Below are positions 8,893-63,128 of a stretch of 64,000 nucleotides of DNA, in pieces (position 1 is the stretch's first letter; every line of letters begins with the position of its first letter). A program made the translations under genes and the position numbers. Location: IMG/VR virus record IMGVR_UViG_3300045988_174992. One strand, written 5' to 3'. Below the pieces are notes generated by a model. That model was not told where the DNA came from and did no database searches. It was given only the letters and a program-made list of their open reading frames with translations. Source of the stretch: a virus.

Positions 8893-8925
8893 TTATAATA
8901 TAGAAAAAAGCCTTAATTTTTCAAA
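8893..8925 (-). promoter_or_regulatory. Promoter-family member P1
   Basis: Minus strand reads TTTGAAAAATTAAGGCTTTTTTCTATATTATAA. Sits 14 nt upstream of ATG 8879. The upstream box overlaps the 3' end of the preceding gene. Confidence 0.6.
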
Positions 8926-9152
8926 TTTTTCCTAAAATTTTTCAATTTATTTTTATTGTAATACTTTAGTATCTGATAAAATGCATACAATCCACCAACA
9001 AAACATAAGAAGATTATAATAGGGATCCAAAGTGGTGCAGTTACCCACCACCAAGACCAATCAATAACATTAGTCAACTTAAGTACAAGAAATACCAAGA
9101 ACAAGACACTTGAAAAGGATAATCCACTTGTATAATTGCTATTATTTTCCAT
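8913..9152 (-). CDS. Small membrane protein (2 predicted TM helices)
   Basis: 79 aa. Hydrophobic segments VLFLVFLVL and WSWWWVTAPLWIPIIIFLCFVGGLYAF. Basic C-terminal tail. Confidence 0.7.
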   Translation of the reverse strand: MENNSNYTSGLSFSSVLFLVFLVLKLTNVIDWSWWWVTAPLWIPIIIFLCFVGGLYAFYQILKYYNKNKLKNFRKNLKN

Positions 9153-9180
9153 TTGATTTTATATGTTTAAATTTGTTAAA

Positions 9181-9275
9181 TATTCACACAGGGACGTTAA
9201 AATTATCTTAACTGATAGAATATACTGAAATATGTTATTCCGCTCCCTGTGTGACCCAGGCACATTCCTATAGTT
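9181..9275 (-). repeat. 95-bp intergenic repeat family, copy C1
   Basis: Shares the boxes GTGCCTGGGTCACACAGGGAGCGGAA ... TTAACGTCCCTGTGTGAATA with copies at 21305, 37019 and 63498. Contains an 11-bp internal inverted repeat TCACACAGGGA/TCCCTGTGTGA. Confidence 0.85.
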
Positions 9276-9280
9276 ATTTT

Positions 9281-9739
9281 TCAAAAATGCTTAGCAAGTT
9301 CTGTATTTGAAAAGAACATCATATTGACACATTTAGCCATCCATTCAACTAAACCTTCATTACATGACTCTTCAAAATACTGACCAGATTCAAGCATGAT
9401 GTGAATACACTCATGTACAAATGTTTGCTTTATCTGTTCTGGTTTCAATGGCTTACCAGATGGAGTAGTCAATGACAAGTTGATTACCTGTTCTGATAAG
9501 TTGCTGTTACCAAAGATCCAGCAAGAAGTATCGTAATCAGAATATACTTTATCATGAAAACAAACATCAATGGTTTCACCAAACAAGTTGAACTGAAAAT
9601 CTTCATACTTCTTCTGTTTCTTCATATTTCTATTTGTATTAGTATTCTTTACATTATTGTTCTTTGAAGCTCTGCAAGGTTTGTTGAATATGATTTTCTC
9701 ATCAGGATTCAACACATCTTTTGCAAACTCAGTGTCCAT
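9281..9739 (-). CDS. Putative zinc metallopeptidase (HExxH)
   Basis: 152 aa with FVHECIHIMLE (HExxH) near the C-terminus. Family not identifiable by eye. Confidence 0.45.
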   Translation of the reverse strand: MDTEFAKDVLNPDEKIIFNKPCRASKNNNVKNTNTNRNMKKQKKYEDFQFNLFGETIDVCFHDKVYSDYDTSCWIFGNSNLSEQVINLSLTTPSGKPLKPEQIKQTFVHECIHIMLESGQYFEESCNEGLVEWMAKCVNMMFFSNTELAKHF

Positions 9740-9787
9740 AAAATCTACTACTTTTCCATAATCATCATTATTAATTATTTACGTAAT

Positions 9788-9818
9788 GAATATAGAAAAA
9801 AATGCAGGAAATTTCAAA
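9788..9818 (-). promoter_or_regulatory. Promoter-family member P2
   Basis: Minus strand reads TTTGAAATTTCCTGCATTTTTTTCTATATTC, upstream of 9281-9739. Confidence 0.65.
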
Positions 9819-9836
9819 AGAAAAATCCTGCATTTT
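9799..9836 (-). terminator. Terminator hairpin interleaved with P2
   Basis: 11-bp stem (9799-9809 with 9826-9836). The loop carries the TGAAATTT box. The 3' arm is followed on the minus strand by a T-run and then the TTCTATATT box. Lies right after the stop of 9838-10674. Confidence 0.6.
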
Positions 9837-9837
9837 G

Positions 9838-10674
<837 letters not shown>

Positions 10675-14578: not shown

Positions 14579-14665
14579 ATTTTCTTGAACTTTTTAAGTT
14601 TGAATTTCTAAATTTAATTTTTGTTCTTAAAGAACTAAAAGTGATGTTATTATTTCAAACAGGTC

Positions 14666-14698
14666 TTGAAATATATCAAGTACATGTTCTATTTTATA
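14666..14698 (+). promoter_or_regulatory. Promoter-family variant, plus strand (only plus-strand copy seen)
   Basis: TTGAAATAT-N12-TTCTATTTTATA, about 105 nt upstream of ATG 14806. Back-to-back with minus-strand P3. Confidence 0.45.
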
Positions 14699-14707
14699 TA
14701 ACGAGAT

Positions 14708-14737
14708 GAATATAGAACAATAGGATAAAATTTCAAA
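14708..14737 (-). promoter_or_regulatory. Promoter-family member P3 (sigma-factor operon)
   Basis: Minus strand reads TTTGAAATTTTATCCTATTGTTCTATATTC, about 130 nt upstream of ATG 14578. Confidence 0.65.
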
Positions 14738-14805: not shown

Positions 14806-15351
14806 ATGATTTACAAGAAATCACATGGTATAAGTTGGATATTTAAGAAAATTGGATCAAATACCCTGACTTGGAGATTAGTAATGTTAGTACAATCAAT
14901 ATACAGATACATTACTGACATGTCATACATATCTGATACTTTATACAGTAAAGAATTCCTTACAGTTCTGAAGCAGTATCTTAGAATATCTGTAAAGAAA
15001 GATTGGATTGGAAGATTGTATGGTGTAATAAACCCATATATTGATATTGATGGAAAGATTGACTTCAACAATACAATCATAGAAATTGATGGAGACAATA
15101 CAAACAGTAATGAATATGTGAAGAATTGGGTATATAGACAGTTCAATTTGATTGACAATCTGTTCAAGATAAACAAACTTTATGATTATATTAATGTCGA
15201 CATAAAGCATGTGGGACCATTGAATGCAGACAATTATCTTATTGTAATTGATATTGTGAGCAGAAAAGAAATGGCTTATGCTTTGAAACGTGTTTTGAAA
15301 CAAACTATATTATATATGATTATCGCACTAAGTGCAGTAATATTGCTATAA
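14806..15351 (+). CDS. Hypothetical protein with C-terminal TM segment
   Basis: 181-aa ORF. C-terminus ILYMIIALSAVILL is hydrophobic. Start uncertain. Confidence 0.55.
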   Translation: MIYKKSHGISWIFKKIGSNTLTWRLVMLVQSIYRYITDMSYISDTLYSKEFLTVLKQYLRISVKKDWIGRLYGVINPYIDIDGKIDFNNTIIEIDGDNTNSNEYVKNWVYRQFNLIDNLFKINKLYDYINVDIKHVGPLNADNYLIVIDIVSRKEMAYALKRVLKQTILYMIIALSAVILL

Positions 15352-15374
15352 ATTTACGTAAATTAAAAACCATT

Positions 15375-15893
15375 ATGAGTAAGAGAAAGTTATCAGAAGT
15401 AGAAAAGAATCAGCAAATTTACAATGACTTTGTAAAGACACTTGAAGGTAAGACAAATGAAGAGTTGCTTGCAATGGAGCAGGATCTCATCAAGGAAATT
15501 GACAAGCATGACCGTAAGGTTGCAAAGTATGAATTTAAGGTTGCTGATAAGGAAGCATTGAAGGAAGCTGTAGAAATTTATCGTTTCTTCATCAATAAGC
15601 AGAAGCTCCAGTTCAGTTATGTTGAAGGAATGCTTCAATTGTGGGATGCATTCAATCCAGATCTTGAGACAATTCCATACCCAACACTTGATGTAATATT
15701 GATGAATCTGGGTCAGCTTCAGTTTGAAGGTCATGATGAGTGGGTAAAGATCATGAAGTTCAATGAGTTTACTAAGCCATATTCAGATGAATATACTAAG
15801 CTTAAGGCTCGTACTTACTTGCTTTCAGAGGAGCATTCAGCTCTTCAATCTAAGCTCGGACTTGATGATGCCGCTACATCTAACAACAAGTAA
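15375..15893 (+). CDS. Hypothetical protein
   Basis: 172-aa ORF followed by a strong terminator. Confidence 0.7.
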   Translation: MSKRKLSEVEKNQQIYNDFVKTLEGKTNEELLAMEQDLIKEIDKHDRKVAKYEFKVADKEALKEAVEIYRFFINKQKLQFSYVEGMLQLWDAFNPDLETIPYPTLDVILMNLGQLQFEGHDEWVKIMKFNEFTKPYSDEYTKLKARTYLLSEEHSALQSKLGLDDAATSNNK

Positions 15894-15907
15894 GAGTTAA
15901 TTACTGA

Positions 15908-15934
15908 ATGGAGAACTTAAGTTCTCCATTTTTA
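15908..15934 (+). terminator. Intrinsic terminator
   Basis: ATGGAGAAC-TTAA-GTTCTCCAT followed by TTTTT. Confidence 0.75.
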
Positions 15935-15955
15935 GTTTTATAAAAATTTTAGAAA

Positions 15956-16366
15956 ATGAAAATAATAGATAATTCGCCAATATGGGAACATGAAGATTTT
16001 GTAATGAGAAATCCAATGGTTGATTGCAAAATTGACAATATAGTAATAGGATGGATGATTGTGGATAAAGATACTGATGTACCTGAATCTTTTCAAATAT
16101 CATTTACCAAAGATGAATTGACTAGGTATTATAAGATATTTGAGAATCTGGTTGGTTTCATTATAAGTAAGATAGTTGATGGGTCAGTAAGCTACATTAC
16201 ACATTATGTTGATACACACGATTTTGGAAATCTGAATTACGAGAATATAATGGATCATGTTGAATTTCTATCTAAATTGAGATTTGAAGTACATACTTGG
16301 TTTGTACATGACAATATCAATATACTTAAAAGTTTTGAAGAATTGATTAAAGAAAAAATTAAATGA
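15956..16366 (+). CDS. Hypothetical protein
   Basis: 136-aa ORF. Confidence 0.65.
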   Translation: MKIIDNSPIWEHEDFVMRNPMVDCKIDNIVIGWMIVDKDTDVPESFQISFTKDELTRYYKIFENLVGFIISKIVDGSVSYITHYVDTHDFGNLNYENIMDHVEFLSKLRFEVHTWFVHDNINILKSFEELIKEKIK

Positions 16367-16515
16367 ATATGGGCAAAGCATTAGAAAGTCTTAAGAAATA
16401 TTTTGAAGAAACACCAAAAGAACAATTAGACAAGGACTTTAAAGAAATAGACAATAAATGGGGTCATATAGGACCAACAGTTGAAGAATGGTTAGAAAGC
16501 AATTTTAAAAAGTAA
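16363..16515 (+). CDS. Small hypothetical protein (50 aa, below the ORF-track cutoff)
   Basis: Its ATG overlaps the TGA of the preceding gene (ATGA). Translates to MNMGKALESLKKYFEETPKEQLDKDFKEIDNKWGHIGPTVEEWLESNFKK. Fills an otherwise empty 150-nt gap and ends 4 nt before the helicase start. Confidence 0.45.
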   Translation: MNMGKALESLKKYFEETPKEQLDKDFKEIDNKWGHIGPTVEEWLESNFKK

Positions 16516-16519
16516 TTTT

Positions 16520-18451
16520 ATGATACATTTTAAATATTCAAATAAAGCTAATCAATATGTTTTTTTAAAGATAGATGGTTATAACGATTTAAAAGCTATT
16601 GCAAAACTTAAAGAAAAGATAAATTTAGTAGACCCAATATGTTATTTAAAATCATATCAAGGTACTCCATATACACAAGATTTTCTTTATGAATATGTTC
16701 AAAAATCTGGACAGAAAGTTTGGTATGCAAGTATTGGATTAACCCAAACTATTTGCAATATATTAAAAGAAAATAATTATGAATATGATGGAATACAAAA
16801 AGAAAAATATTTAACTGAATTTAATTTATCTTTTGAAGAATTCAAAAAAATAGTTGACAGTTGGAATTTGAAGTATACACCAAGACCATATCAGTATGAA
16901 GGGGCATATAAAATATTGCAATGGAAGCGATCAACATCTGTATTTGCTACAAGAGCTGGTAAGACTATGCTTAGTTATATAGTTTTCAGGTATGCAAGAG
17001 AATATCTTGGTGTACGTAGAATATTAATGATTGTACCAAGTATTGACTTAGTAAAGCAAGGATATTCTGACTTCAAAGAATATGGAGATTATTTCAACAG
17101 TGAATGTCTTTGGTCTGGTGGTAAGTTGGTTGAATCATCTGACTTGACAATTACAACATTCCAAACACTTGTGAATTTCTTAAATAAGAATTCAAAACGT
17201 TACAATCCACATTTCTTTGATGGTAATGGAATAGATAGATGTGGATATGATATGGTGTTTGTTGATGAAACACATCGTGCTACAGCTAAATCTATTAAGG
17301 ATATAATAAGCCAGCCATTCATGTCAAATGTGAAGATAGCATTTGGAATGACAGGTACTTTACCAAAAGATTTCACTATAGAAAGACACTGTATCAATGC
17401 ATTGCTAGGTCCTAAGATACAAGAATTGAATCCAAAAGACTTACAAGATGGCGGCTATATTTCTGATGTTAAGATAACACAGTGCAGATTGCAATATATG
17501 AATGAATGGCAATCCATTAAAGATTGGATAAAATGCGCAGAATATTGTTTGTCAATATTTGAGGAAGTACCTAATAAGAAGAATCCAAAGAAAATGGACC
17601 ATGTACCATTGACAGATCCAAAATTCTTAATTGCTTATAAGAAAAACCTACCACAAGGTATTATTGATGCTAAATGGAAGATATATGAAGAAAAGAAGCC
17701 AGATACCAGCAAGATGTCTGATGAACAATGGCAACAATATCAAGATTTACAGTATAAGCATTTTCTTCAGATGGTAATACAGGAATCTACAAAGACTAAT
17801 GCATTACATGTTGAAATGATGACTGTGCATTTCAAAGAAAGAAGAATAGATTGGTTGATAGCAAAGCTTAAGGATTGCCCTAACAATACATTGATTCTTG
17901 CACAACATCGTGAATATATAAAATATGTTTATGAAAGAGTTAAAGAAGCATACCCAGATAGAGAAGTCCTATATGTAATAGGTGGTTCTAAAGACAGAAA
18001 TATAGTGAAAGAAGTGATGAAAACCAAAAATAATGTGATACTGATCGCAGGGTATTCCATCATGAGCACTGGTATTACACTTTCTAATCTTTGTCATGGT
18101 TTCTTATTTGAATCATTCAAATCTCAAGTAATCAATATGCAATCTATTGGTAGAGGACTTGGTTTGTCAGATATGAAAGATGCTTATGAACTATATGATG
18201 TTACAGATCAATTTGATCCTAAGATAGCATCTAATAAAATATATCTCCAGGGTTTAGCCCGTTGTAAACTTTATAAAGAACAAAAATGGTCTTATAATAT
18301 AGAAGAAATTCCTTTGGAAGATTGTGTACATATAGATCAAAGAATAGTTGACTTTGTATATAAGAAGAAACCAAAGATAGAAGAAAAGAAAAAGAAAGAA
18401 CAAAATGCCAATGGAAGCTTGGGATTTTTAGAACAAGATTTATTTAAATAA
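16520..18451 (+). CDS. Superfamily-2 (DExH) DNA/RNA helicase
   Basis: Motif I ATRAGKTM, motif II VFVDETHRA, motif III GMTGTLP, motif VI QSIGRGLG. 643 aa. Confidence 0.8.
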   Translation: MIHFKYSNKANQYVFLKIDGYNDLKAIAKLKEKINLVDPICYLKSYQGTPYTQDFLYEYVQKSGQKVWYASIGLTQTICNILKENNYEYDGIQKEKYLTEFNLSFEEFKKIVDSWNLKYTPRPYQYEGAYKILQWKRSTSVFATRAGKTMLSYIVFRYAREYLGVRRILMIVPSIDLVKQGYSDFKEYGDYFNSECLWSGGKLVESSDLTITTFQTLVNFLNKNSKRYNPHFFDGNGIDRCGYDMVFVDETHRATAKSIKDIISQPFMSNVKIAFGMTGTLPKDFTIERHCINALLGPKIQELNPKDLQDGGYISDVKITQCRLQYMNEWQSIKDWIKCAEYCLSIFEEVPNKKNPKKMDHVPLTDPKFLIAYKKNLPQGIIDAKWKIYEEKKPDTSKMSDEQWQQYQDLQYKHFLQMVIQESTKTNALHVEMMTVHFKERRIDWLIAKLKDCPNNTLILAQHREYIKYVYERVKEAYPDREVLYVIGGSKDRNIVKEVMKTKNNVILIAGYSIMSTGITLSNLCHGFLFESFKSQVINMQSIGRGLGLSDMKDAYELYDVTDQFDPKIASNKIYLQGLARCKLYKEQKWSYNIEEIPLEDCVHIDQRIVDFVYKKKPKIEEKKKKEQNANGSLGFLEQDLFK

Positions 18452-18459
18452 AATACAAT

Positions 18460-19068: not shown

Positions 19069-19105
19069 TTATGAATAAATTTAATGATTTCATTTTATAT
19101 ATTAT

Positions 19106-19306
19106 CTAGTTTGATTTTTGATTTTTATGACCTACATGCCACTTATTGCAATAATTACAATAATATGGTTCTAAATAATCATTCTTTTGCCTATATAAAA
19201 ATAAAATTGCATCCTCTTTAGAAGAAAAAGCAATTTTGCTATGTTTGTTCTTGTTATAATGTGATCTTTTTGTTTGAGATATTTTCTCTGGCAACTTAAG
19301 AAACAT
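19106..19306 (-). CDS. Small basic Cys/His protein
   Basis: 66 aa. YYCNYCNKWHVGH suggests a zinc-binding knuckle. TAG stop. Confidence 0.5.
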   Translation of the reverse strand: MFLKLPEKISQTKRSHYNKNKHSKIAFSSKEDAILFLYRQKNDYLEPYYCNYCNKWHVGHKNQKSN

Positions 19307-19326
19307 TAAACATTCTATATTTGTTT

Positions 19327-19545: not shown

Positions 19546-19573
19546 AATTTTAATAATCTTTATTTTGTTTAAC

Positions 19574-20545: not shown

Positions 20546-20580
20546 AAAAATTAAATTGTTCTACATTATTTTAACATATC

Positions 20581-20610
20581 TAATATAGAAAAGTTGAATT
20601 AAAATTCAAA
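20581..20610 (-). promoter_or_regulatory. Promoter-family member P4a
   Basis: Minus strand reads TTTGAATTTTAATTCAACTTTTCTATATTA. Confidence 0.6.
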
Positions 20611-20637
20611 CTTTTATTTCCTGTTAACTTTAGTTAA

Positions 20638-20666
20638 CATATAGAACAATCTTCTAAAATTTCAAA
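20638..20666 (-). promoter_or_regulatory. Promoter-family member P4b (tandem with P4a)
   Basis: Minus strand reads TTTGAAATTTTAGAAGATTGTTCTATATG. Overlaps the stop of the NUDIX gene. Confidence 0.55.
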
Positions 20667-21225: not shown

Positions 21226-21249
21226 AATTATTATTTTTTGTTCGAATAT

Positions 21250-21278
21250 AATATAGAACAATTTTTAAAAATTTCAAA
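21250..21278 (-). promoter_or_regulatory. Promoter-family member P5
   Basis: Minus strand reads TTTGAAATTTTTAAAAATTGTTCTATATT. Sits 25 nt upstream of ATG 21225. Confidence 0.7.
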
Positions 21279-21304
21279 TAAATATCATTTTAGAATACAA
21301 AAAA

Positions 21305-23415: not shown

Positions 23416-23433
23416 TATTTTTTGTTCAGAGAT

Positions 23434-23462
23434 AAAATAGAACAATTATGATTTATTTCAAA
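23434..23462 (-). promoter_or_regulatory. Promoter-family member P6
   Basis: Minus strand reads TTTGAAATAAATCATAATTGTTCTATTTT. Confidence 0.6.
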
Positions 23463-28585: not shown

Positions 28586-28614
28586 TCTCTATTATGTTTT
28601 TATTCTATAAGTAA

Positions 28615-28643
28615 AATATAGAAATAATGGTTAACGCATTTCA
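28615..28643 (-). promoter_or_regulatory. Weak promoter-family variant P7
   Basis: TGAAATGC-N12-TTCTATATT. The upstream box lies within the last codons of 28631-30952. No TTTG. Confidence 0.3.
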
Positions 28644-30952
28644 TCTTTAGATGTTATAAATTCTTCTGTATCACAACCACTCCAAGCAAATCTAGTATAC
28701 TCTTTAGTAGATGGACTATCAAATCCAGTATTTGTCTTACCAGGAATCAGATTTACCATATTTCTTTTATATTTATCCTTTTCATTTTTATCTATAAAAT
28801 TATCATACATCAAATCTTTGGTGTCCTTTTTTTGTTCATTATCTGCATTCTTCTGTTTTTCTTTGCTTTCTTCTTGTGGTTTTGTTGCATCATTTATCTG
28901 ACCTTTAGAAGGTGTTTCCGGTGGAGTTTCCAAGTTTATGTTTGTACCAGCTTTTTGATTATCATTAAATTCTATAGTATTGTAAGGAGAACATAATGAT
29001 AAATATATTCCATTCTGACCTTTAGTATACATCTTAGATATTTCTGTAGCATCCCTTGACATGGCATGCTTTAATGATACGGATACATGTAAGTCTGTTG
29101 GGAAATCATCAAATCCCAATGGTCCACTATGTGTTATCTTTGCATTTGTCATTATCAAATTTCCAAATGTTGCAATAGGGTTTTTTGGATTACCTATAGT
29201 TACATGCCAAAGACCTACTTTAGCTCCAGTAAGCAATGAGTCAAAAGCATATAATGATGGACGACCTAATTTATTTTTTATAGAACCCATCATTGCTTGT
29301 CCAAGATTCATCTCTGCTGTCTTTTTGGCTGCCATTTGGGCCGCAGAACCAATTTTATTTACAACTTCACCCGTAGTCATATTACCAGACAAGAAATCTT
29401 TAACTGATTGCAAAGCATTATTTACCATCTTACCAGCATCTAATCCTGCACCTTTAGCTATATCAAGAAGGGCACCATTGAATTGAGTTAATGCTCCTGC
29501 CATGGTATCTGTGTTTGAACCTTCAAGGTGAAATATGTTTTTCCATAAGTCTCCACCTGCTTTAGACAATCCATCTAATACATTGTTGTATTTTTGCCAT
29601 CCTGCTTTATTAGGTTTAGCTCCCAATATTTCACTCTTTCCTCCCCAGAATGTTCCTTTTCTATATGTAACAGTCAATATATTGCCAAGTAAATCCAGAA
29701 AAGCAGATTTTGGGTTGATGTTGTCATAAGCTCTCAACTTATAAGAGAAATTCAAAGTGAATTCATGTTTGAATGTAAGCTTACCTTCATATATATGAGT
29801 ATCCCAAATAGTATCTCTTGGGGTATATACTTTGTTGTTATCATAATTTCTACCTAATGCTACATCATTATGCTGATATTCATGTGAATCAGCACCTATA
29901 CCCATGCTATTCATCAACTGTCCAAGCAAACCACCTGAATTGATACCATGAGCTGTTCCTAAATTATATCCAGGACTTAAGTTGTTAATTATCTTACCAG
30001 CTATGCCTCTACCCTCATCATCTTCTTGAGAATCCAACTGCTGTATCTTAGCATCAAGCTTTTTCCAAGAAGCTTCATATTCATAAGACATGATATCACT
30101 AAGCTTATTGTCATCAGTATCAAACCAAGTAATCATTCTACCAACATCACCAATAGTAGACATTGGGTCTTGCTTACCTTCAGCCGCGGTTGTTGCAACA
30201 GTTGATCTGAATATATTGTCTCCAACAGGAATAGCAAACTTACGTAAAGTTATCATGTGATTGTTAGAAATCTTTCCAAGATCTTTACAATACATGAAAT
30301 CTGCATACTTATATCTTGCATTACCAAGTATAGACTTTCTTACAGAACTGAGGTTAACCAACTCTCTTATAGAACAATCATCTAAGTTAGCTATTTCTTT
30401 TTTGTCATGCTTAGAAAGAAATGTACCATCCATCAAAGGTACATTTTCCATTATACCATAAACAGGTAATGCATGATAAGGGTTAAACAATGATGGTGTC
30501 AAGTCACCCCTAAAGTTATATGTCTTATACATCTTTCCATTAGTACCTTGTTTTTCACCATCATTTCCTGTTTCTATAAGCATATCAGATAAGAAACACC
30601 TGTAATTGTTCACTACTTGAAATATTTCATTATTCATGTGAGTTGGTGTCCAAATTACAGCTTGTCTATTTTCTTCTCTATTTTTGTCAGCAGGAGGTGC
30701 CAACATATTTGATTCATATTTTATTGTTGGGTGTGAAGAAAAATCTAAATCATCTATCAATGAAGAAGTGTCCCTATCTTCATTATATCTTATACCATCA
30801 GTATCATAACCTTGTCCGGATGTTGCTTTTGATATTGTGGCGTTAAATGCAGATCTTAATGAATTGTTCAATACATCCTTCAAAGAATTAGATTGTTGTG
30901 GTGTAATGAGGTGAGAACCACCTTTATTTAATGTACTTGGAAATGATAACAT
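28631..30952 (-). CDS. Large hypothetical protein (virion-type size)
   Basis: 773-aa ORF. No motif recognised. Confidence 0.75.
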   Translation of the reverse strand: MLSFPSTLNKGGSHLITPQQSNSLKDVLNNSLRSAFNATISKATSGQGYDTDGIRYNEDRDTSSLIDDLDFSSHPTIKYESNMLAPPADKNREENRQAVIWTPTHMNNEIFQVVNNYRCFLSDMLIETGNDGEKQGTNGKMYKTYNFRGDLTPSLFNPYHALPVYGIMENVPLMDGTFLSKHDKKEIANLDDCSIRELVNLSSVRKSILGNARYKYADFMYCKDLGKISNNHMITLRKFAIPVGDNIFRSTVATTAAEGKQDPMSTIGDVGRMITWFDTDDNKLSDIMSYEYEASWKKLDAKIQQLDSQEDDEGRGIAGKIINNLSPGYNLGTAHGINSGGLLGQLMNSMGIGADSHEYQHNDVALGRNYDNNKVYTPRDTIWDTHIYEGKLTFKHEFTLNFSYKLRAYDNINPKSAFLDLLGNILTVTYRKGTFWGGKSEILGAKPNKAGWQKYNNVLDGLSKAGGDLWKNIFHLEGSNTDTMAGALTQFNGALLDIAKGAGLDAGKMVNNALQSVKDFLSGNMTTGEVVNKIGSAAQMAAKKTAEMNLGQAMMGSIKNKLGRPSLYAFDSLLTGAKVGLWHVTIGNPKNPIATFGNLIMTNAKITHSGPLGFDDFPTDLHVSVSLKHAMSRDATEISKMYTKGQNGIYLSLCSPYNTIEFNDNQKAGTNINLETPPETPSKGQINDATKPQEESKEKQKNADNEQKKDTKDLMYDNFIDKNEKDKYKRNMVNLIPGKTNTGFDSPSTKEYTRFAWSGCDTEEFITSKDEMR

Positions 30953-32162: not shown

Positions 32163-32227
32163 TTCTTTAATTTACAATTTAAATATGTGTTTTCTTATTA
32201 GGATATCCTTTTTCTTTAATTAATTTT

Positions 32228-32258
32228 AATATAGATATATGGTTAACATGGTTTCAAA
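32228..32258 (-). promoter_or_regulatory. Promoter-family variant P8
   Basis: Minus strand reads TTTGAAACCATGTTAACCATATATCTATATT, upstream of 31431-32162. Confidence 0.5.
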
Positions 32259-33144: not shown

Positions 33145-33181
33145 AAATTCAGACAGAATATAGTTTATCCTGTCTGAATTT
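33145..33181 (-). terminator. Terminator hairpin interleaved with P9
   Basis: 12-bp perfect stem (33145-33156 with 33170-33181). The 13-nt loop carries the CTATATT box. Confidence 0.6.
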
Positions 33182-33185
33182 CAAA
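33157..33185 (-). promoter_or_regulatory. Promoter-family member P9
   Basis: Minus strand reads TTTGAAATTCAGACAGGATAAACTATATT. Confidence 0.55.
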
Positions 33186-36856: not shown

Positions 36857-36967
36857 CTAAAATTCTATCAATTGTTCTAAAACTTAAAAATCATTATATT
36901 ATGTTATGTTACTTACTTATCTTGTATCAAAATAGTAAATTGAATAAAGCTATTTCAAAATGATTTT

Positions 36968-36996
36968 AATATAGAATATATTTGTTAAAACAATCA
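36968..36996 (-). promoter_or_regulatory. Weak promoter-family variant P10 (primase gene)
   Basis: Perfect TTCTATATTAAAAT box but a degenerate upstream box (TGATTGTT). Confidence 0.3.
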
Positions 36997-38049: not shown

Positions 38050-38050
38050 A

Positions 38051-38287: not shown

Positions 38288-38290
38288 ACA

Positions 38291-42321: not shown

Positions 42322-42325
42322 GTAA

Positions 42326-45210: not shown

Positions 45211-45238
45211 AATTATTATAATTTTGTTTGACATATAT

Positions 45239-45267
45239 AATATAGAAACAAATAAAGAAATTTCAAA
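45239..45267 (-). promoter_or_regulatory. Promoter-family member P11
   Basis: Minus strand reads TTTGAAATTTCTTTATTTGTTTCTATATT. Confidence 0.7.
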
Positions 45268-46940: not shown

Positions 46941-46993
46941 AAAACCTGTTCTGTATCTTAAATTTTTTACATTTAAAATATAGAACAGGTTTT
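46941..46993 (-). terminator. 12-bp perfect inverted repeat enclosing the -10-type box of P12
   Basis: AAAACCTGTTCT (46941-46952) pairs with AGAACAGGTTTT (46982-46993). 29-nt loop. Confidence 0.5.
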
Positions 46994-47005
46994 ATAAATT
47001 TCAAA
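46977..47005 (-). promoter_or_regulatory. Promoter-family member P12
   Basis: Minus strand reads TTTGAAATTTATAAAACCTGTTCTATATT. Confidence 0.7.
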
Positions 47006-47671: not shown

Positions 47672-47867
47672 ATTATTTCATAAACAGCGCTTTAGGGAAG
47701 TTCCCTCTATTCTACATAACTCCTCATGTTGCACTTTATGGCATATCATATAAGTGTATTTCATTAATTATTCATAAAATTACAACGAGTCAGTAGCGAT
47801 TCATTGATTTGTAGCTATATAAAAATAAAATGGTATACCTGTTGAACATTAAATTTCTTTCAAGTTC

Positions 47868-47881
47868 AATTTTTATATAAC
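47868..47881 (+). promoter_or_regulatory. Candidate late-type motif AATTTTTATATAAC
   Basis: About 25 nt before ATG 47905. Related to the boxes at 93, 37161 and 30978(-). Confidence 0.25.
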
Positions 47882-49503: not shown

Positions 49504-49539
49504 ATAGAAAGAATTTAAATTACATTATTAAAATACTCT

Positions 49540-57566: not shown

Positions 57567-57597
57567 AAAAATTTTAATGTTCATTATTAACATTTAT

Positions 57598-57626
57598 AAT
57601 ATAGAAAAAGGTTAAGAAATTTCAAA
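57598..57626 (-). promoter_or_regulatory. Promoter-family member P13
   Basis: Minus strand reads TTTGAAATTTCTTAACCTTTTTCTATATT. Confidence 0.7.
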
Positions 57627-57942: not shown

Positions 57943-58848
57943 TTATTTATTAATTTCATCATAAGTCTGTTTAGGTCCTTCTGGAAGATAAATCTTCAAT
58001 GCACTAATTTCCTTCACAGTCTTAGTTTTCCACATGTCAAACTTATTTCTGATACTTTCCATTGTATCAACATATTTTGCATATTCATCATCAAACTTCT
58101 GGGCCTTAGCAAGCTTATCTTCTGTAATAGCATCAATAATTTCTTGCTTCATCTTATTGAATTCTGCTTCTTTATGTCGAAGTTCAGTAGACAGCCAATC
58201 ATACTCAGTATTAACATCAGATACTAGCATAGATGGTTCATAAGAATAAATGATTGTATCTCGACCAGAACCTTCTACTTTGCTTGGATTCTGTAAAGCA
58301 TTGTTCATCTGTGCTTTAGCTTCATAAAATGCTCCCTTAGGATGAATGAACTTACCAACAAGAGAACAATAAGATTCATAAACATAGTACTTATTTCTCT
58401 TAGCAACATCCCATGTACCAATTACATCAGATTCGCCAATAGGAAATTCCTTACCTGGGGCATTTGGAAGTTCAATATTCTGAGCCTTAGCCCATTCGGT
58501 AATAGGAAGTGACTGAACATAATCAAGAATCTCTGTCTTTGCTTTGATTGCTTCATGAATCCATGCACTCATGGCATTCAAATTTGCAATCTTTGCAATG
58601 GTCTTATGCATTGATTCAAAAGAATCTGCACTCATACCTTTTGTAATTGGCTTAGAATCAGCCACACCATAAGAGTTGAAAAGCAAACATAATGATGTAT
58701 TGACAAAATTGATATTGTCAAGAATTGCCTGTTCTGACTTCAACAATTCTTTACCCTTATTAGAAACATGATTAGCAGAAGTAGATGTAATACCCTTTTC
58801 TGCAAAAAATACCTTATACTTACTGAATTTGTCGTTTAATATATCCAT
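57943..58848 (-). CDS. Hypothetical protein
   Basis: 301-aa ORF with a coiled-coil-like C-terminal third. Confidence 0.7.
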   Translation of the reverse strand: MDILNDKFSKYKVFFAEKGITSTSANHVSNKGKELLKSEQAILDNINFVNTSLCLLFNSYGVADSKPITKGMSADSFESMHKTIAKIANLNAMSAWIHEAIKAKTEILDYVQSLPITEWAKAQNIELPNAPGKEFPIGESDVIGTWDVAKRNKYYVYESYCSLVGKFIHPKGAFYEAKAQMNNALQNPSKVEGSGRDTIIYSYEPSMLVSDVNTEYDWLSTELRHKEAEFNKMKQEIIDAITEDKLAKAQKFDDEYAKYVDTMESIRNKFDMWKTKTVKEISALKIYLPEGPKQTYDEINK

Positions 58849-58863
58849 AGTTTTAAAGTTTAG

Positions 58864-58928
58864 TGGACCATGTGAGATTCGAACTCACGTCCAACCGAAG
58901 TTATCGATTGTCAAATCCGTAATGGCCC
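58864..58928 (-). tRNA. Atypical tRNA-like element (65 nt, no D-arm; anticodon-loop triplet AAC)
   Basis: Minus strand: acceptor GGGCCAT/ATGGTCC (7 bp, G3:U70). Canonical T-arm GTGAG-TTCGAAT-CTCAC. Stem CAATCG/CGGTTG with the 7-nt loop ATAACTT. Only 11 nt lie between the acceptor and this stem, so no D-arm. No encoded CCA. Confidence 0.4.
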
Positions 58929-58993
58929 AAGTTATGTTTATTAATTTTAGTTCTTGAACAGAACTGAAAGTGATGTTCATTATTTATATTTTC

Positions 58994-59022
58994 GATATAG
59001 AAAAGTTTAAATCAAAAATTCA
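58994..59022 (-). promoter_or_regulatory. Promoter-family member P14
   Basis: Minus strand reads TGAATTTTTGATTTAAACTTTTCTATATC. It would transcribe the tRNA-like element and 57943-58848. Confidence 0.5.
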
Positions 59023-59966
59023 TCATTTGTTATGATAATATTTAGTTTATTTTCTTCATTTTTCTCTTCTATTTTTTCTTGTTTATCGAAGAATTCATCC
59101 ACTTCTTCAAATTTCTTACCTTGACAATCAATAGTATATCCTTTATTGAAATTAGGATCATTCTCACTTATTGTAATAGCGGCTTTCTCTATTTCCTCAG
59201 CTGATAATGTTGTCTTATCATAAAATACCAATGAAAGAGAATTGCATACGCATTTCATTATAATATTCTCATATCCAATTCCAGATCTTCCATTAGAATA
59301 TCCTTCATTGAGAGTCAATTTAGAAATAAATGTTCCAAGACTTACATCATTGATAGTAAAATACTGTTTAGATAATTTCGTTATACTTTCAAAACTTCTA
59401 TCTTCAGTGATATCCATCAATTCAGTATTCCATGTATTTGGATCTGATGTATATGCAAACATACTGAATGAATATGGATAAAAAGCTAGATTGCATTTTC
59501 TTGGATACAACTTCATAGCAGCTACAGACATATTTGTATCAAATGAATAACTTTGTCTCATTTTCAGTTCTCCATTTTCATAATGCACCGCCTTTATGAA
59601 GTTGTTCTCTCCAAGTATTTTGAAATACTTTTCATTCAATACAATCTCTAAGTCTTCTATATATGATTCATTCAATGTATATTGATTAGATGTACCATAG
59701 TAAATATCATTCACTCTTTTATTGAATATATGTTCTGGTACTTTACGAAGAATACAAGGAATGTAGAATGACTTACTTGTATCTATTGCTTTTACTTCCA
59801 TAATTACTGTTACCCAGCGTTGGAACAATCTGTAATCATTATTAGTAAAAGCATAAGCAGATAAAAATTTGTCATTATCTATAATAGATTCTGGTGGAAA
59901 TCTAGAATTCTCTTGTAATCTTTCTATACCCTTATCTATGTAATATAAAACCTTACTATCTTCCAT
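59007..59966 (-). CDS. Hypothetical protein encoded directly downstream of dnaJ
   Basis: 319-aa ORF. 4-nt gap after the dnaJ stop. Confidence 0.7.
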   Translation of the reverse strand: MEDSKVLYYIDKGIERLQENSRFPPESIIDNDKFLSAYAFTNNDYRLFQRWVTVIMEVKAIDTSKSFYIPCILRKVPEHIFNKRVNDIYYGTSNQYTLNESYIEDLEIVLNEKYFKILGENNFIKAVHYENGELKMRQSYSFDTNMSVAAMKLYPRKCNLAFYPYSFSMFAYTSDPNTWNTELMDITEDRSFESITKLSKQYFTINDVSLGTFISKLTLNEGYSNGRSGIGYENIIMKCVCNSLSLVFYDKTTLSAEEIEKAAITISENDPNFNKGYTIDCQGKKFEEVDEFFDKQEKIEEKNEENKLNIIITNDEFLI

Positions 59967-59970: not shown

Positions 59971-61002
59971 CTATCCTTTATCTTTTAAACGTTCAATTGC
60001 TTTCTTTGTTTCTTTATCAAGTGTTTTAGGAAATACCGGATTGACAACCATTGTATAATCATGTCCATCAATACCCTTTCCTTTTATTCTAAGTTTCTTA
60101 CCAACTTCAGAACATTCCGGAAGATTTATTCTCATCTTCTGATTACCAGGTAAATTGATTTCAATCTTACCTCCGAGCATTACATCCTTCCAATCAATAT
60201 CTTCTTTACCTTCTACATTACCATAATCATCAATATGATATTTATTATGGTCATAAGTATGTTGTACAGTAATGTAAAGTTCACCATTTGTTCCATTTAC
60301 AGATTTAGATTCAGAACCAAGTGGACCAACATCAATTCTGATACCATCTTTCAAAAGATATTCCAACGGAATTCTTGACAAGTCAATTTCTTCACTTACT
60401 AACTTGCCAATGAAACCAGTACCAGAACAAGCTGCACACTTATGTTCTACTGTCTTACCTTTACCATTACAATAAGGACATGGATGGCTAGATTGGAAGA
60501 ACATGTTTCCTTGTCGTCTAGATTCAGTCACCATACCACTACCGTTGCAATGTGAACAAACTTTAACACCAGTACCACCTACACCATCGCAAACATTACA
60601 TCTGAAGTCTTTCAAATATGCTACTGACTTAATACCTCTAAAATAGAAATCAGAAATATCAACATTCAATTTTCCTTCGCAATTCTTACCTCTCAAATCT
60701 CTATAATCTTCAGTATGCCAAGATGGTCCACTTGACCTATCATGTCCGAAGAAATCAGCAAATGGATTGAATCCACTACCGAAACCAGGATTGTCATATT
60801 CTTGCTTCTTTTGTGGATCTGACAAAGTTTCATAAGCTTCATTAGCAGATTTTACAATCTCTTCAGCTTCTTTCTTCTCCTTATCAGATTTGTTACCCAT
60901 TCTATCTGGATGATATTTGAGCATTATTTTCTTATATGCTCTTTTGATATCATCTTCTGATGCATCTCTAGATACACCTAAAATATCATAGTAATCTTTC
61001 AT
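59971..61002 (-). CDS. dnaJ: DnaJ/Hsp40 co-chaperone (type I: J domain, short G/F, four CxxCxGxG)
   Basis: DYYDILGVSRDASEDDIKRAYKKIMLKYHPDR. Zinc-finger repeats CNVCDGVG, CSHCNGSG, CPYCNGKG and CAACSGTG. Confidence 0.9.
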   Translation of the reverse strand: MKDYYDILGVSRDASEDDIKRAYKKIMLKYHPDRMGNKSDKEKKEAEEIVKSANEAYETLSDPQKKQEYDNPGFGSGFNPFADFFGHDRSSGPSWHTEDYRDLRGKNCEGKLNVDISDFYFRGIKSVAYLKDFRCNVCDGVGGTGVKVCSHCNGSGMVTESRRQGNMFFQSSHPCPYCNGKGKTVEHKCAACSGTGFIGKLVSEEIDLSRIPLEYLLKDGIRIDVGPLGSESKSVNGTNGELYITVQHTYDHNKYHIDDYGNVEGKEDIDWKDVMLGGKIEINLPGNQKMRINLPECSEVGKKLRIKGKGIDGHDYTMVVNPVFPKTLDKETKKAIERLKDKG

Positions 61003-61032
61003 GTTATTTATTATCTATTCTTTGACATGTTA

Positions 61033-61060
61033 AATATAGAAAATGGTCGATCAAATTTCA
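61033..61060 (-). promoter_or_regulatory. Promoter-family member P15 (dnaJ)
   Basis: Minus strand reads TGAAATTTGATCGACCATTTTCTATATT. Confidence 0.55.
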
Positions 61061-61078
61061 TTAATTCAACCGACCATT
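61042..61078 (-). terminator. Hairpin after dnaK, interleaved with P15
   Basis: AATGGTCG (61042-61049) pairs with CGACCATT (61071-61078). The loop carries TGAAATTT. Confidence 0.5.
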
Positions 61079-61102
61079 CAAATTGTTATTGATATAAATT
61101 AT

Positions 61103-63058
61103 TTATGCATCTTCAACTACAGCATCTTCTACTTTTACATCATCTGATTTTTCTTCTTTCTTATCATTGTCATGATTTGACGCATTCTCTTCCTTTGCAT
61201 TTCCTTCCTGTGTCTCTGTCTTATCAGTACCATCTTGGCTCTTTTGCTTATCGGCATAGAATTTCTCAACTATTGGGTTCCAAACTTCTTCCAACTCTTT
61301 CTTAGCTTCCATGATCTTATCATGGTCTTTGTCCTTCAATACAACAACTGATTCCAATGCATCAAGTTTTTCTTGTGCTTTAGCTCTATCCTCATCTGAT
61401 GTAGCTTTGACAAAATCTTCATTGACAATCATCTCTTTTGTATTGAACATGTAACGTTCTGCATCATTGATGTCATTAGTTTCTTTTGTCTTCTTTTCAT
61501 CAGCTTCCTTGAACTTCTCAGCATCTTCCTTGATTGCTTTGATTTCCTCATCAGTAAGTGTATTGTTACTGATTGTAATGTGCTGTTCTTTATTAGTACC
61601 AAGATCCTTAGCAGTAACAGTAACGATACCATTTGCATCAATATCAAAGCAAACTTCAATCTGTGGTACCCCAGCTTTTGCCATAGGAATTCCATCCAAT
61701 CTGAATCTACCAATAGACTTATTACCAGAAGCAATCTTACGTTCACCTTGCAATACATTTACCTCAACCATAGGTTGGTTATCAATAGATGTGGTGAATA
61801 CTTGCTTCTTCTGACATGGAATTGTTGTATTTGCTTCAACAATAGGTGCCATCATATCTCCCTTAGTTTCAATACCTAATGACAATGGAGTAACATCAAG
61901 AAGCAACAAATCACCAGTAGAATTACCAGCAAGAATATCAGCTTGCTTAGCAGCACCTAATGCAACTGCTTCATCTGGATTTACAGATTGATTCAATGGC
62001 TTATTGAATTCCTTCTTCAATGCCTCTTGCAATGATGGAATACGAGTTGTACCACCTACAAGTAAGATACAATCAATATCATCATACTTCTTACCAGCTT
62101 TCTCAACAGCAACCTTTGCTTTTTCAACTGTGCGATCATTCAAATTCTTTACAAGAGATTCAAACTTAGCACGAGAAAGTGTCATAGCAAGATTCAATGG
62201 TGCACCATCTTTCATAGAAATATATGGAAGATTAATCTCTGTCTGTGTTGAACTTGACAATTCAATCTTTGCTTTTTCTGCAGATTCTACTACACGAGCA
62301 TAAGCCATATTATCCTTTGTCAAATCAACATCATCTGACTTCTTAAATTCATCAACTACCCACTTTACAATAGCATCATCATAGTCTTTACCTCCAAGAT
62401 ATACATCACCATTTGATGCAAGTACTTCAGCCATACCATCTGACAACTCAAGGACAGAAACATCAACAGTACCAGTACCTGAATCCACTACTACAACAGT
62501 CTTGTCTTTCTTGTCTTCCATCAAGTTAGCTGCCAATGCTGCTGATGTTGGTTCATTAATCACACGAAGTACATTCAATCCAGCAAGCTCACCAGCTGTC
62601 TTAGTTGCTGTACGAGCAGCATCACCAAACCAAGCTGGTACTGTAATTACTGCATCTTTGATTTCCTCACCAACAAAATCTTCAGCAATTTTTTTCATCT
62701 TACCAACAATCATAGATGAAATCTGTTCTGGAGAATATTCCTTATCATCAATCTTAACATAAGGCTTACCAGACTTATTTACAATATCATAAGTTGCAAG
62801 CTTTTGCATCTTCTTTACATTTTCATCATTGAAATCAGCACCCATCAAACGCTTTACAAAACTGATAGTGTTCTTTGGATTTGTTACCATTGCACGCTTT
62901 GCGGCATTACCAATCTTCACTTCATCCTTTGTAATCTGTACTACAGATGGTGTTGTTCTTGTTCCTTCTTCATTTACTACTACAACTGGTTTACCTGCCT
63001 CAATTACTGCTACACACGACATACCCGTGCCTAGATCTAGGCCTAAAACTTTACTCAT
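61103..63058 (-). CDS. dnaK: DnaK/Hsp70 chaperone
   Basis: 651 aa. GLDLGTGMSCVAV, DAVITVPAWF, DSGTGTVDVSVLE, ILLVGGTTRIPSLQ and VNPDEAVALGAA, with a substrate-binding domain and an acidic tail. Confidence 0.92.
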   Translation of the reverse strand: MSKVLGLDLGTGMSCVAVIEAGKPVVVVNEEGTRTTPSVVQITKDEVKIGNAAKRAMVTNPKNTISFVKRLMGADFNDENVKKMQKLATYDIVNKSGKPYVKIDDKEYSPEQISSMIVGKMKKIAEDFVGEEIKDAVITVPAWFGDAARTATKTAGELAGLNVLRVINEPTSAALAANLMEDKKDKTVVVVDSGTGTVDVSVLELSDGMAEVLASNGDVYLGGKDYDDAIVKWVVDEFKKSDDVDLTKDNMAYARVVESAEKAKIELSSSTQTEINLPYISMKDGAPLNLAMTLSRAKFESLVKNLNDRTVEKAKVAVEKAGKKYDDIDCILLVGGTTRIPSLQEALKKEFNKPLNQSVNPDEAVALGAAKQADILAGNSTGDLLLLDVTPLSLGIETKGDMMAPIVEANTTIPCQKKQVFTTSIDNQPMVEVNVLQGERKIASGNKSIGRFRLDGIPMAKAGVPQIEVCFDIDANGIVTVTAKDLGTNKEQHITISNNTLTDEEIKAIKEDAEKFKEADEKKTKETNDINDAERYMFNTKEMIVNEDFVKATSDEDRAKAQEKLDALESVVVLKDKDHDKIMEAKKELEEVWNPIVEKFYADKQKSQDGTDKTETQEGNAKEENASNHDNDKKEEKSDDVKVEDAVVEDA

Positions 63059-63099
63059 TTTAAATTTAATCTTATATATGTTTTTGTTTATCTAATTAA

Positions 63100-63128
63100 T
63101 ATATAGAAAAAAGTGTGCCAGAATTTCA
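63100..63128 (-). promoter_or_regulatory. Promoter-family member P16 (dnaK)
   Basis: Minus strand reads TGAAATTCTGGCACACTTTTTTCTATATA. Confidence 0.5.

Follow-up and report, generated by a model that had tools for sequence, protein, structure and literature searches.

A predicted family of two-box promoters in an uncultured gut jumbo phage and the sigma factors that could read it

The 64,000-nucleotide (nt) stretch of the IMG/VR virus record IMGVR_UViG_3300045988_174992 (the window) repeats a two-box DNA element ahead of its genes and raises two questions: whether this element is a promoter and, if so, which sigma factor reads it. The element has the form (T)TTGAAATTT-N10-12-TTCTATATT, followed 7 nt on by a conserved pyrimidine-G, and occurs in 17 minus-strand copies and one plus-strand copy, all intergenic and each directed at a gene. 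Judged from their sequence, the copies are very probably sigma-70-type promoters; start site, timing and reader sigma we infer. A plausible reading, if one that stops short of probable, is that they are the cognate, autoregulated promoters of a sigma factor that the phage itself encodes and uses with host core polymerase.

The window is AT-rich (guanine-cytosine (GC) content ~31%) and looks like a piece of a large phage genome. Eight IMG/VR contigs (167-294 kb), all of one sample, contain pieces with which it shares 84-98% DNA identity. The exact sequence of its sigma protein recurs in 196 blocks of an assembly collection, among which 22 contigs, human and pig gut samples included, were read. 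Since the same protein was found in human-gut and pig-gut contigs of 277-285 kb, the whole genome, that of an uncultured gut jumbo phage, measures about 280 kb. Searches of GenBank phage nucleotide and protein sequences with 7.5 kb of DNA, the sigma factor and a 532-amino-acid (aa) protein as queries returned no close relative.

Form, enrichment and start signal of the motif

Ten copies, named here by the first position of box 1 (14737, 20666, 21278, 23462, 33185, 45267, 47005, 57626, 20610, and 8925), conform to TTTGAA(A/T)TTT-N10-TTCTATATT. The original prediction had listed the family by position and had assigned one identical geometry to its strict members. The sequence it gave is present at every listed coordinate, and the common 10-nt spacer is confirmed, in ten copies altogether. 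The spacer is 11 nt long in copies 9818 and 61062, 12 nt in copies 63130, 28645, and 32258, and 11 to 12 nt by hand count in copy 59024; copy 36976 consists of the second box only (Table 1).

With up to three mismatches allowed, TGAAATTT-N10-TTCTATATT has 12 matches in the window against 3.09 expected, a number reached in 0 of 100 shuffles, and TTCTATATT alone is present in 17 places on the minus strand and in a single one on the plus strand. A gapped position weight matrix found 12 minus-strand matches and one plus-strand match at a score of at least 16, and both-strand shuffles gave 0.63 (13 against 0.63); the matrix was built from nine of the copies, and the test is partly circular. In the intergenic DNA (5.6 kb), 12 matches to a loose two-box pattern were counted, and in the coding DNA (58 kb) a single one; under a first-order Markov null of intergenic composition the mean is 0.31 and the maximum 3 (500 runs). 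A repeat finder recovered the family unprompted, as repeats D7, D8, D10, and D11. Generic sigma-70-like matches, in contrast, are not enriched in this AT-rich DNA (114 in the window, 121 in shuffles), which argues that the family is distinctive because of its extended conservation and not because of its match to a consensus.

We scanned IMG/VR for exact TTGAAATTT-N10-TTCTATATT and pooled 138 unique instances, which revealed a third conserved element overlooked by the original prediction. The seventh base after TATATT is G in 88% of the instances; the base before it is T or C in 93%, the one after it is T in 79%, and an A-rich stretch comes next. A T precedes the whole pattern in 85%, and the 3' half of the spacer is T-rich. 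With the conserved G as +1, TATATT occupies -12 to -7, C lies at -13, and TTGAAA occupies -34 to -29, leaving a 16-nt spacer between the hexamers (17-18 nt in the loose copies); the upstream box (T)TTGAAATTT then spans about -35 to -26, and position -1 is a pyrimidine. Within box 1, conservation peaks at TGAAAT and not at a -35 hexamer's TTG. Compared with the consensus TTGACA-16/18-TATAAT, TTGAAA-16-TATATT agrees at 10 of 12 positions at 8924, 14736, 21277, 45266, 47004, and 57625, and the agreement is 9 of 12 at 20609, 23461, 20665, and 14666(+); the hexamers are 17 nt apart at 9817 and 61061. All 18 copies keep the TA and the final T of the downstream hexamer. Downstream of the pooled instances, an open reading frame (ORF) of at least 40 codons lies within 400 nt on the same strand in 131 of 138, with a median of 25 nt from the conserved G to the ATG. 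The leaders are A-rich and lack a Shine-Dalgarno sequence.

The promoter reading draws on the enrichment of the motif, its strictly intergenic position, its co-orientation with downstream ORFs and the 25-nt leader. It is strengthened by the Y-G-T 7 nt past TATATT, a signal for which the instances had not been selected, together with the 9-10/12 hexamer match, and by the conservation of boxes and spacing amid changing flanks in relatives, where even the collapse of a tandem pair has preserved the 10-nt spacer (see below).

The motif also accounts for misplaced gene starts. The N-terminal extensions that had been suspected of being spurious are indeed so: ORFs 20662-21261 and 23116-23445, called from a TTG, have their first codon within box 2, which reads as codons TTG TTC TAT ATT (MFYII...) or TTG TTC TAT TTT (MFYFI...). 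The true start of the NUDIX gene is probably the ATG at 21225 and not the TTG at 21261. Two called ATG starts, at 45234 and 57593, are the conserved start-site trinucleotide itself. We considered whether a conserved ATG at the start signal marks leaderless mRNAs and rejected the idea, since TCG and ACG are equally common in that place and several of the ATGs run into a stop codon immediately.

Smaller elements accompany some copies. At promoters 21278, 23462, 14737, 47005, and 20610 and in pooled loci, TGTTC just before TATATT pairs with a GAACA past the start. GAACA occurs within +1..+45 in 29% of the 138 instances, compared with 3-9% of controls, and in 47% of those in which TGTTC is present; the two could be an operator half-site pair. 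A leader motif, AACATCACTT, occurs four times against 0.35 expected (8855-8864(-), 14639-14648(-), 58968-58977(-), also in the relative L050); three copies lie 25-55 nt past predicted starts, and the motif precedes or is part of a small hairpin, e.g. ATCAC-TTCG-GTGAT. Box 2 of copy 33185 is bracketed by the inverted repeat CAGACAG/CTGTCTG, and box 1 of copy 28645 overlaps the 3' end of ORF 28631-30952.

Three copies are built into compact terminator-promoter modules, in which the T-tails of minus-strand hairpins (61041-61079, 63114-63149, and 9790-9830) provide the spacer and the start of box 2. Box 1 of copy 9818 forms part of the hairpin loop (AATGCAGGA...TCCTGCATT), and the T-run of this hairpin is the spacer. 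Box 1 of copies 61062 and 63130 lies inside the respective terminator-like hairpin, and at 61062 the T-tail extends into box 2. At 14665-14737 two family members face each other, with predicted starts on adjacent base pairs of one CpG (14702/14703). Each promoter would thus lie within the first 40 nt transcribed from the other, so that the site would admit one polymerase at a time. The facing pair is kept in relatives, its spacers being free to vary.

Conservation across the clade and genes behind the motif

Exact copies of the motif number 14-21 each in the examined parts of six related IMG/VR contigs (219-294 kb) and six each in the other two of the eight. Orthologous alignments (promoter 23462 with L057 and L080, 21278 with L050 and L057, and 63130 with L070 at 78% identity, where L marks relatives) show that the boxes and their spacing are kept, while spacers and flanks vary and indels occur. 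In three relatives (L053, L075, and L057) the tandem pair 20666/20610 has collapsed to one promoter that combines box 1 of the first copy with box 2 of the second and still has the 10-nt spacer. Such a fusion suggests that the repeated promoters recombine with each other.

More distant lineages were found via the sigma protein, and each has its own version of the motif: [AT]TGAAATTT-N10-TTCTATATT in L123 (sigma 58% identical), TTTGAA(A/T)TT-N11-12-(A/G)TC(T/C)AT(A/G)T in L121 (48%; GC 45%), ATTGAATTTT-N10-(A/T)(A/T)CTAT(A/T)TT in L129 (44%), and TTTGAAATTT-N10-TACTATAAT in L131 (40%). Conservation of the motif spans 27% to 45% GC. The motif is found upstream of the sigma orthologue in the window, L123, L121 (two tandem copies), L128 (47%), L129, and L131; L130 is unclear. 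In L123, L129, and L131 a copy lies 70-90 nt before the sigma ATG, the two copies of L121 being 30 and 71 nt away.

In the window, the ~18 promoters head nearly all replication, nucleotide-metabolism, chaperone, and small-gene operons. Behind them are encoded the sigma factor, a 1217-aa helicase/primase-like protein, a NUDIX hydrolase, a deoxynucleoside monophosphate (dNMP) kinase, a dUTPase-like protein, an RNA ligase, a nucleoside 2-deoxyribosyltransferase, a phosphatase, DnaK, DnaJ, and several clusters of small unknown ORFs. The DnaK (Hsp70, 680 bits) and DnaJ genes form a pair at 59971-63058(-), each with a promoter copy of its own. The original prediction had confined the motif almost exclusively to the minus strand. 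This holds for 17 of the 18 copies, but strand is a poorer guide to the motif than the kind of gene: the plus-strand copy heads a plus-strand operon with a UvsW-type helicase and is conserved in relatives, which argues that the motif follows gene class.

Three plus-strand blocks (138-7225, 37192-42899, and 47905-54501) had been described as motif-free, and they are, apart from a weak match at 71 (score 14.3). Their description as structural did not fare as well, as no structural annotation was obtained for them. Searches of the large plus-strand proteins against Pfam, PHROGs, NCBIfam, and PDB sequences gave no usable annotation, with a faint DpoZ match only for a 1172-aa protein and none for a 1653-aa protein. 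An AlphaFold2 model of the 532-aa protein (predicted local distance difference test (pLDDT) 82) consists of all-beta immunoglobulin-like modules and has no specific PDB match. The block at 37-43 kb encodes a nucleoside-diphosphate kinase, two genes of the plus-strand blocks code for DUF285/BspA-type repeat proteins, and the only virion-like matches, a neck/head-closure-like protein (23487-25127) and a lysozyme-domain protein (25153-26646), are encoded on the minus strand in the motif-headed dNMP-kinase operon. The proposed division into structural and non-structural genes is therefore only partly supported.

A candidate second promoter class, (TT)ATTTTTATATA, is present five times in the window against 0.6 expected. 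All five copies are intergenic and co-oriented with the next gene, and they have no upstream box. Of the three blocks without the main motif, two are headed by ATTTTTATATA, as are most units without it, and the element recurs in relatives at orthologous and at new sites. The sigma genes of L123, L129, L130, and L131 have it 150-190 nt upstream; in the lineage of the window, the copy upstream of the sigma gene is degenerate (ATTTTTATCTA). The element may be a late class similar to that of T4 gp55, or else the class closest to the -7 element of the host, given that TATTTTTA matches five of six near-invariant positions.

Table 1. Positions of the sigma gene, the main promoter family and the candidate second class in the window (+1, predicted start)
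Feature	Position	Strand	Remarks
Diverged sigma-70-family factor, 399 aa	13379..14578	-	N-terminal conserved domain of ~125 aa, regions 2.1-2.4, region 4
Promoter copy TTTGAAAAAT-N10-TTCTATATT-ATAAT-CG	8890..8925	-	Predicted +1 G 8890; heads 8349-8879 and downstream genes; orthologous copies
Promoter copy, 11-nt spacer	9782..9818	-	Predicted +1 9782; heads 9281-9739
Promoter copy of the sigma operon	14702..14737	-	Predicted +1 G 14702, 123 nt before ATG 14578
Plus-strand variant CTTGAAATAT-N12-TTCTATTTT	14665..14703	+	Predicted +1 G 14703; heads operon 14806-18705 (UvsW-type helicase)
Promoter copy TTTGAATTTT-N10-TTCTATATT	20575..20610	-	Predicted +1 20575; second of tandem pair before 20153-20545
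Promoter copy, box 2 TTCTATATG	20631..20666	-	First of tandem pair
Promoter copy	21243..21278	-	Predicted +1 21243; heads NUDIX hydrolase gene
Promoter copy TTTGAAATAA-N10-TTCTATTTT	23427..23462	-	Predicted +1 23427
Loose copy GATGAAATGC-N12-TTCTATATT	28608..28645	-	Heads operon of dNMP kinase, 266-aa protein, lysozyme-domain protein, neck-like protein
Loose copy TTTGAAACCA-N12-ATCTATATT	32221..32258	-	Heads dUTPase-like gene 31431-32162
Promoter copy TTTGAAATTC-N10-AACTATATT	33150..33185	-	Predicted +1 33150; heads 32265-33131
Box 2 only (TTCTATATT), no recognisable box 1	36961..36976	-	~110 nt before 1217-aa helicase/primase-like gene; weakest member
Consensus copy	45232..45267	-	Predicted +1 45232; heads operon of RNA ligase and nucleoside 2-deoxyribosyltransferase
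Consensus copy	46970..47005	-	Predicted +1 46970; heads 46463-46939
Consensus copy	57591..57626	-	Predicted +1 57591; heads small-ORF cluster (57593 down to 54562)
Loose copy GATGAATTTTT...TTCTATATC	58987..59024	-	Followed by leader, tmRNA-like domain (58861-58928), ORF 57943-58848
Promoter copy AATGAAATTT-N11-TTCTATATT	61026..61062	-	Predicted +1 61026; heads DnaJ gene
Loose copy CATGAAATTC-N12-TTCTATATA	63093..63130	-	Heads DnaK/Hsp70 gene
Candidate second class, ATTTTTATATA	94..104	+	34 nt before ORF 138-1229; unit 138-3778
Candidate second class	3854..3864	+	Directly after hairpin and T-run; before 3966-7225 (DUF285/BspA-type repeat proteins)
Candidate second class	47869..47879	+	26 nt before 47905-54501 (532-aa all-beta and 1653-aa proteins)
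Candidate second class	47816..47826	-	Divergent partner of copy 47869; before 47018-47671
Candidate second class	19192..19202	-	In spacer 19069-19573; before 18733-19068

Which sigma factor reads the motif

That the phage encodes a sigma-70-family factor, and that the gene of this factor carries the motif, had both been proposed and are borne out. The ORF matches phrog_351 at 1.5e-11; no Pfam family matches at E <= 0.01, and NCBIfam sigma models match below their cut-offs, but the matches as a whole are consistent and cover regions 2.1-2.2, 2.3-2.4, and 4. Some homologues carry PF04542, and the family profile matches PDB sigma chains at E ~2e-6. The top Foldseek matches of an AlphaFold2 model (pLDDT 69) are solely sigma-70/SigA/RpoS chains (probability 1.0). 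The family has 228 members in a metagenome protein collection; tblastn found no homologue in GenBank phages. In a hand alignment to Escherichia coli sigma-70, Y430 is kept and W433 is replaced by Y. TTCTATATT resembles the RpoS -10 consensus with C-13; the aligned phage residue is not lysine in the hand alignment, and we gave this likeness no weight.

In the mechanism that we tentatively propose, host core polymerase with a sigma factor possessing region-2 and region-4 domains would bind both boxes, melt the DNA at TATATT and initiate at the conserved G. The reader would most likely be the phage's own 399-aa sigma. With the sigma gene behind its own motif, a positive feedback loop would arise, as in autoregulated alternative sigmas, and it might be primed by weak recognition by the host holoenzyme, by a second promoter type further upstream, or by sigma carried in with the DNA. 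The regulon would comprise the replication, nucleotide-metabolism, RNA-repair, chaperone, and small-ORF operons, many of these units being set off from the next by terminator hairpins with which its promoter physically overlaps. The phage sigma is suggested as reader by the motif upstream of its orthologues in the window and five other lineages, and by its possession of both domains that a two-box promoter calls for. If the host belongs to the Bacteroidota, its sigma-A should read the sites poorly, which makes the phage sigma the natural reader. Huge phages with a sigma-70 of their own that attack the sigma-70 of the host are documented, and its replacement by huge phages has been proposed (PMC7162821). 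Jumbo phages of the T4-like group have no RNA polymerase and encode sigma factors (PMC7824862). No RNA polymerase was found among the genes of the window.

The lack of Shine-Dalgarno sequences and the nearest cultured relatives, which infect Flavobacteriia, argue that the host is probably a member of the Bacteroidota. Only 5 of 62 window genes have a Shine-Dalgarno 4-mer, A is found at -3 in 65%, and the leaders are A/T-rich, a pattern typical of the Bacteroidota (PMC6847099). The only cultured relatives of the neck protein are from phages of Tenacibaculum (PTm1, PTm5, and pT24), Chryseobacterium (MA9V-1 and MA9V-2), and Sphingomonas (PAU); two huge uncultured phages match as well. The DnaK of the phage aligns collinearly with that of E. 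coli and exceeds the DnaK of Geobacillus or Mycobacterium tuberculosis by 22-24 residues near the N-terminus. An N-terminal DnaK insert is typical of diderm lineages. Among gut jumbo phages with CRISPR links, Bacteroidota and Bacillota are the two commonest host phyla (PMC11662467).

Several observations weigh against the phage sigma as reader of the motif. A motif ahead of sigma orthologues is also expected if all early genes carry it, and the sigma gene, placed behind its own promoter, requires a first round of expression. The genes for the phage sigmas SPO1 gp28 and phiEco32 gp36 are read by host sigma and not by their own products. Since the residues that contact -12 and -35 are not conserved in the hand alignment, the specificity of the phage sigma is unreadable from its sequence. 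The motif is near-consensus for sigma-70/sigma-A, and a canonical primary sigma could read it unaided; the genes behind it include small-ORF clusters resembling the earliest class, and no separate earlier promoter class is visible in the window. The main alternative, somewhat less likely but quite possible, is that the copies are strong early promoters read by the host primary sigma, like the extended-consensus early promoters of T4 or T5, and that the phage sigma is a product of this set that directs a later class, e.g. ATTTTTATATA; this estimate includes the canonical Bacteroidota reading discussed below. The hexamers (TTGAAA-16/18-TATATT, 9-10/12 to the canonical consensus) with Y-1 and G+1 fit this explanation, and the genes behind them (sigma, small-ORF, replication, and nucleotide-metabolism) are the usual early/delayed-early set. 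It is also favoured by the absence in the window of any other promoter before the sigma gene, by the recurrence in relatives of the distinct single-box ATTTTTATATA that stands ahead of two of the three motif-free blocks, and by the precedent of SPO1 and phiEco32. Moreover, the sigma family is present in six contigs of metagenome-assembled genomes whose labels read Romboutsia, Erysipelotrichales, Erysipelotrichaceae, Firmicutes, or Clostridia, in conflict with the translation signals and the cultured relatives, and the sigma-A of Firmicutes reads such promoters; we judge these labels weak, though not to be dismissed, because low-GC contigs are binned by composition. A Bacteroidota sigma-A, on the other hand, should need TAHHTTTG, whereas the motif has 36% T at -6 and essentially no G at -5, and the conservation that reaches past the hexamers (GAAATTT, C-13, and YGT) at all GC contents from 27% to 45% is better explained by a dedicated factor.

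The narrower version of a host reader, in which the copies are ordinary Bacteroidota -33/-7 promoters (TTTG / TAnnTTTG), a type to which the original prediction had likened them, is improbable. The geometry agrees: TTTG precedes TA by N19 in strict and N20-21 in loose copies, which is the published spacing range (PMC6847099), T-12, A-11, T-8, and T-7 of the -7 element are all present in TATATT at -12 to -7, and the host is probably of this phylum. However, promoters of F. johnsoniae combine a weak -33 element with an almost unvarying T-6 and G-5 (PMC6847099), whereas the 138 instances have A (54%), T (36%), or G (1%) at -6 and T (54%), A (37%), or G (7%) at -5, and their upstream box is far more conserved than a Bacteroidota -33 element. 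Five loose copies have ATG for TTG and hence lack TTTG, and the full canonical pattern, TTTG-N18-21-TAHHTTTG, is at chance level: the window has one match, and 1.1 Mb of clade DNA has 34 where 24-39 are expected. We regard it as very improbable that a phage activator or appropriator redirects the host holoenzyme as MotA/AsiA do, with TGAAATTT as a protein-binding box in place of -35 recognition and TATATT read by host region 2. Such a factor would suit a box 1 whose core is TGAAAT and not the -35 TTG, the tightly fixed spacing of the strict copies, and the TGTTC...GAACA inverted repeats and GAACA enrichment (29% against 3-9%), which hint at additional DNA-binding proteins; but no MotA- or AsiA-like protein was found among the ~50 window proteins scanned, copies that look functional differ by 0 to 2 nt in spacer length, and the phage has a sigma factor with a region-4 domain that itself requires a target. 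It is scarcely credible that the copies are not promoters at all but a repeated cassette, such as an operator, a recombination site, or a terminator module, or a product of AT-rich intergenic composition. Several copies do overlap terminator-like hairpins, copies recombine with each other in relatives, and generic sigma-70-like matches are as frequent in shuffles as in the window; yet the loose pattern exceeds its intergenic-composition null (12 against 0.31), the co-orientation with the downstream gene is strict and comes with a 25-nt leader, the three-part geometry fits polymerase contacts, and hairpin-free copies are the majority.

The family resembles other phage promoter regulons: its form is nearest that of T4-type early promoters, and its logic that of cognate promoters belonging to phage sigmas or to autoregulated alternative ones; its consensus, clade, and sigma family are new, but the kind of feature is already known in phages. 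Like the early promoters of T4 and T5, which are read by host sigma-70, it combines near-consensus hexamers with extra conserved positions, occurs dozens of times per genome and is placed before early, nucleotide-metabolism, and replication genes, and no phage polymerase is visible in the window. It differs in the 16-nt spacer of the strict copies, the conserved C-13 and GAAATTT extension, and the inclusion of a phage sigma gene in the set. The Bacteroidota, the probable host phylum, do not use TTGACA/TATAAT promoters (PMC6847099). With Bacteroidota sigma-A promoters the family shares TTTG-N19-21-TA..TT, an A-rich leader without Shine-Dalgarno sequence, and the probable host phylum, but not T-6/G-5, and its upstream box is strong and extended where theirs, at -33, is weak. 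A sigma with regions 2 and 4 and a high-information two-box motif are also features of SPO1 gp28, phiEco32 gp36, and the autoregulated promoters of extracytoplasmic function (ECF) sigmas, and a motif before the sigma gene across orthologues is the signature used to predict ECF target promoters. By sequence, the phage sigma is related neither to gp28 nor to the ECF sigmas, and it stays below the cut-off of all curated sigma models. In SPO1 and phiEco32 the sigma gene is read by host sigma. The motif here is housekeeping-like and not exotic.

Among phages, the window shares a UvsW-type helicase and a sigma factor with the T4-like jumbo phages that lack a polymerase and encode a sigma (group 2 of Iyer et al. 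2021, with PTm1 and the Lak megaphages; PMC7824862), and its T4-type neck protein is most similar to those of PTm1, pT24, MA9V, and PAU. The first 50 kb of PTm1 contain neither the main motif nor ATTTTTATATA and could not separate a host-sigma from a phage-sigma reading. The same DNA (L139, 1-50000) has a recurring element of its own, TTGTTTAATAC (TTGTTT(A/T)ATAC), which is intergenic and lies directly after terminator hairpins; it may be a phage-specific promoter of a cultured Bacteroidota jumbo phage.

The copies provide a first promoter map for a widespread clade of uncultured gut jumbo phages of ~280 kb. They correct gene starts that ORF callers had placed inside the promoter, and they define operons and a probable temporal split into two promoter classes. 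If the phage sigma reads the motif and the host belongs to the Bacteroidota, the phage would replace, and not modify, the unusual primary sigma of its host, and the pair of sigma and promoter would be a ready-made orthogonal one for Bacteroidota engineering. A self-contained orthogonal system of prevalent human, pig, and ruminant gut jumbo phages, in which an uncharacterised phage sigma clade (at least 228 homologues in gut and rumen metagenomes, none in GenBank phages), autoregulated through the motif, gives core polymerase TTGAAA/TATATT specificity in Bacteroidota cells whose own sigma-A would be unable to read such promoters, is conceivable, though doubtful. With host sigma as the reader, the family would be no more than an ordinary set of early promoters.

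Further features of the window

An Rfam scan at gathering thresholds and ARAGORN gave zero matches in the window. Just downstream of promoter 59024, the minus-strand segment 58861-58928 resembles the tRNA-like domain of transfer-messenger RNA (tmRNA), with an acceptor stem and T-arm (GGACGUGAGUUCGAAUCUCAC...GGUCCAC). It scores 45 bits against RF00023, whose gathering score is 47 (E 3e-16), and is not called by ARAGORN; it matches both ends of the model, and the mRNA-like middle is missing. The segment 57627-57942 upstream of promoter 57626, ~315 nt without a called ORF, has no Rfam match.

A repeat of ~100 nt with no Rfam family occurs in four copies, at 9175-9275(-), 21298-21398(-), 37030-37130(+), and 63500-63600(+). 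Conserved are GCGCCTGGGTCAC and GGAGCGGAA at its 5' side and TTTTAACGTCCCTGTGTGAATATTT at its 3' side. Three copies form a long hairpin (z-score -2.8 to -4.9), a T-run follows two, and two are antisense to local genes.

Two arrays of repeats lie within genes. At 4234-7225(+), three paralogous genes for leucine-rich-repeat proteins of the DUF285/BspA type are built of 78-nt (26-residue) tandem units, at least 15 in number. At 10029-10172, inside ORF 9838-10674(-), a hexanucleotide array (GTTCTG)n with GATTCTG variants presumably encodes a low-complexity dipeptide repeat.

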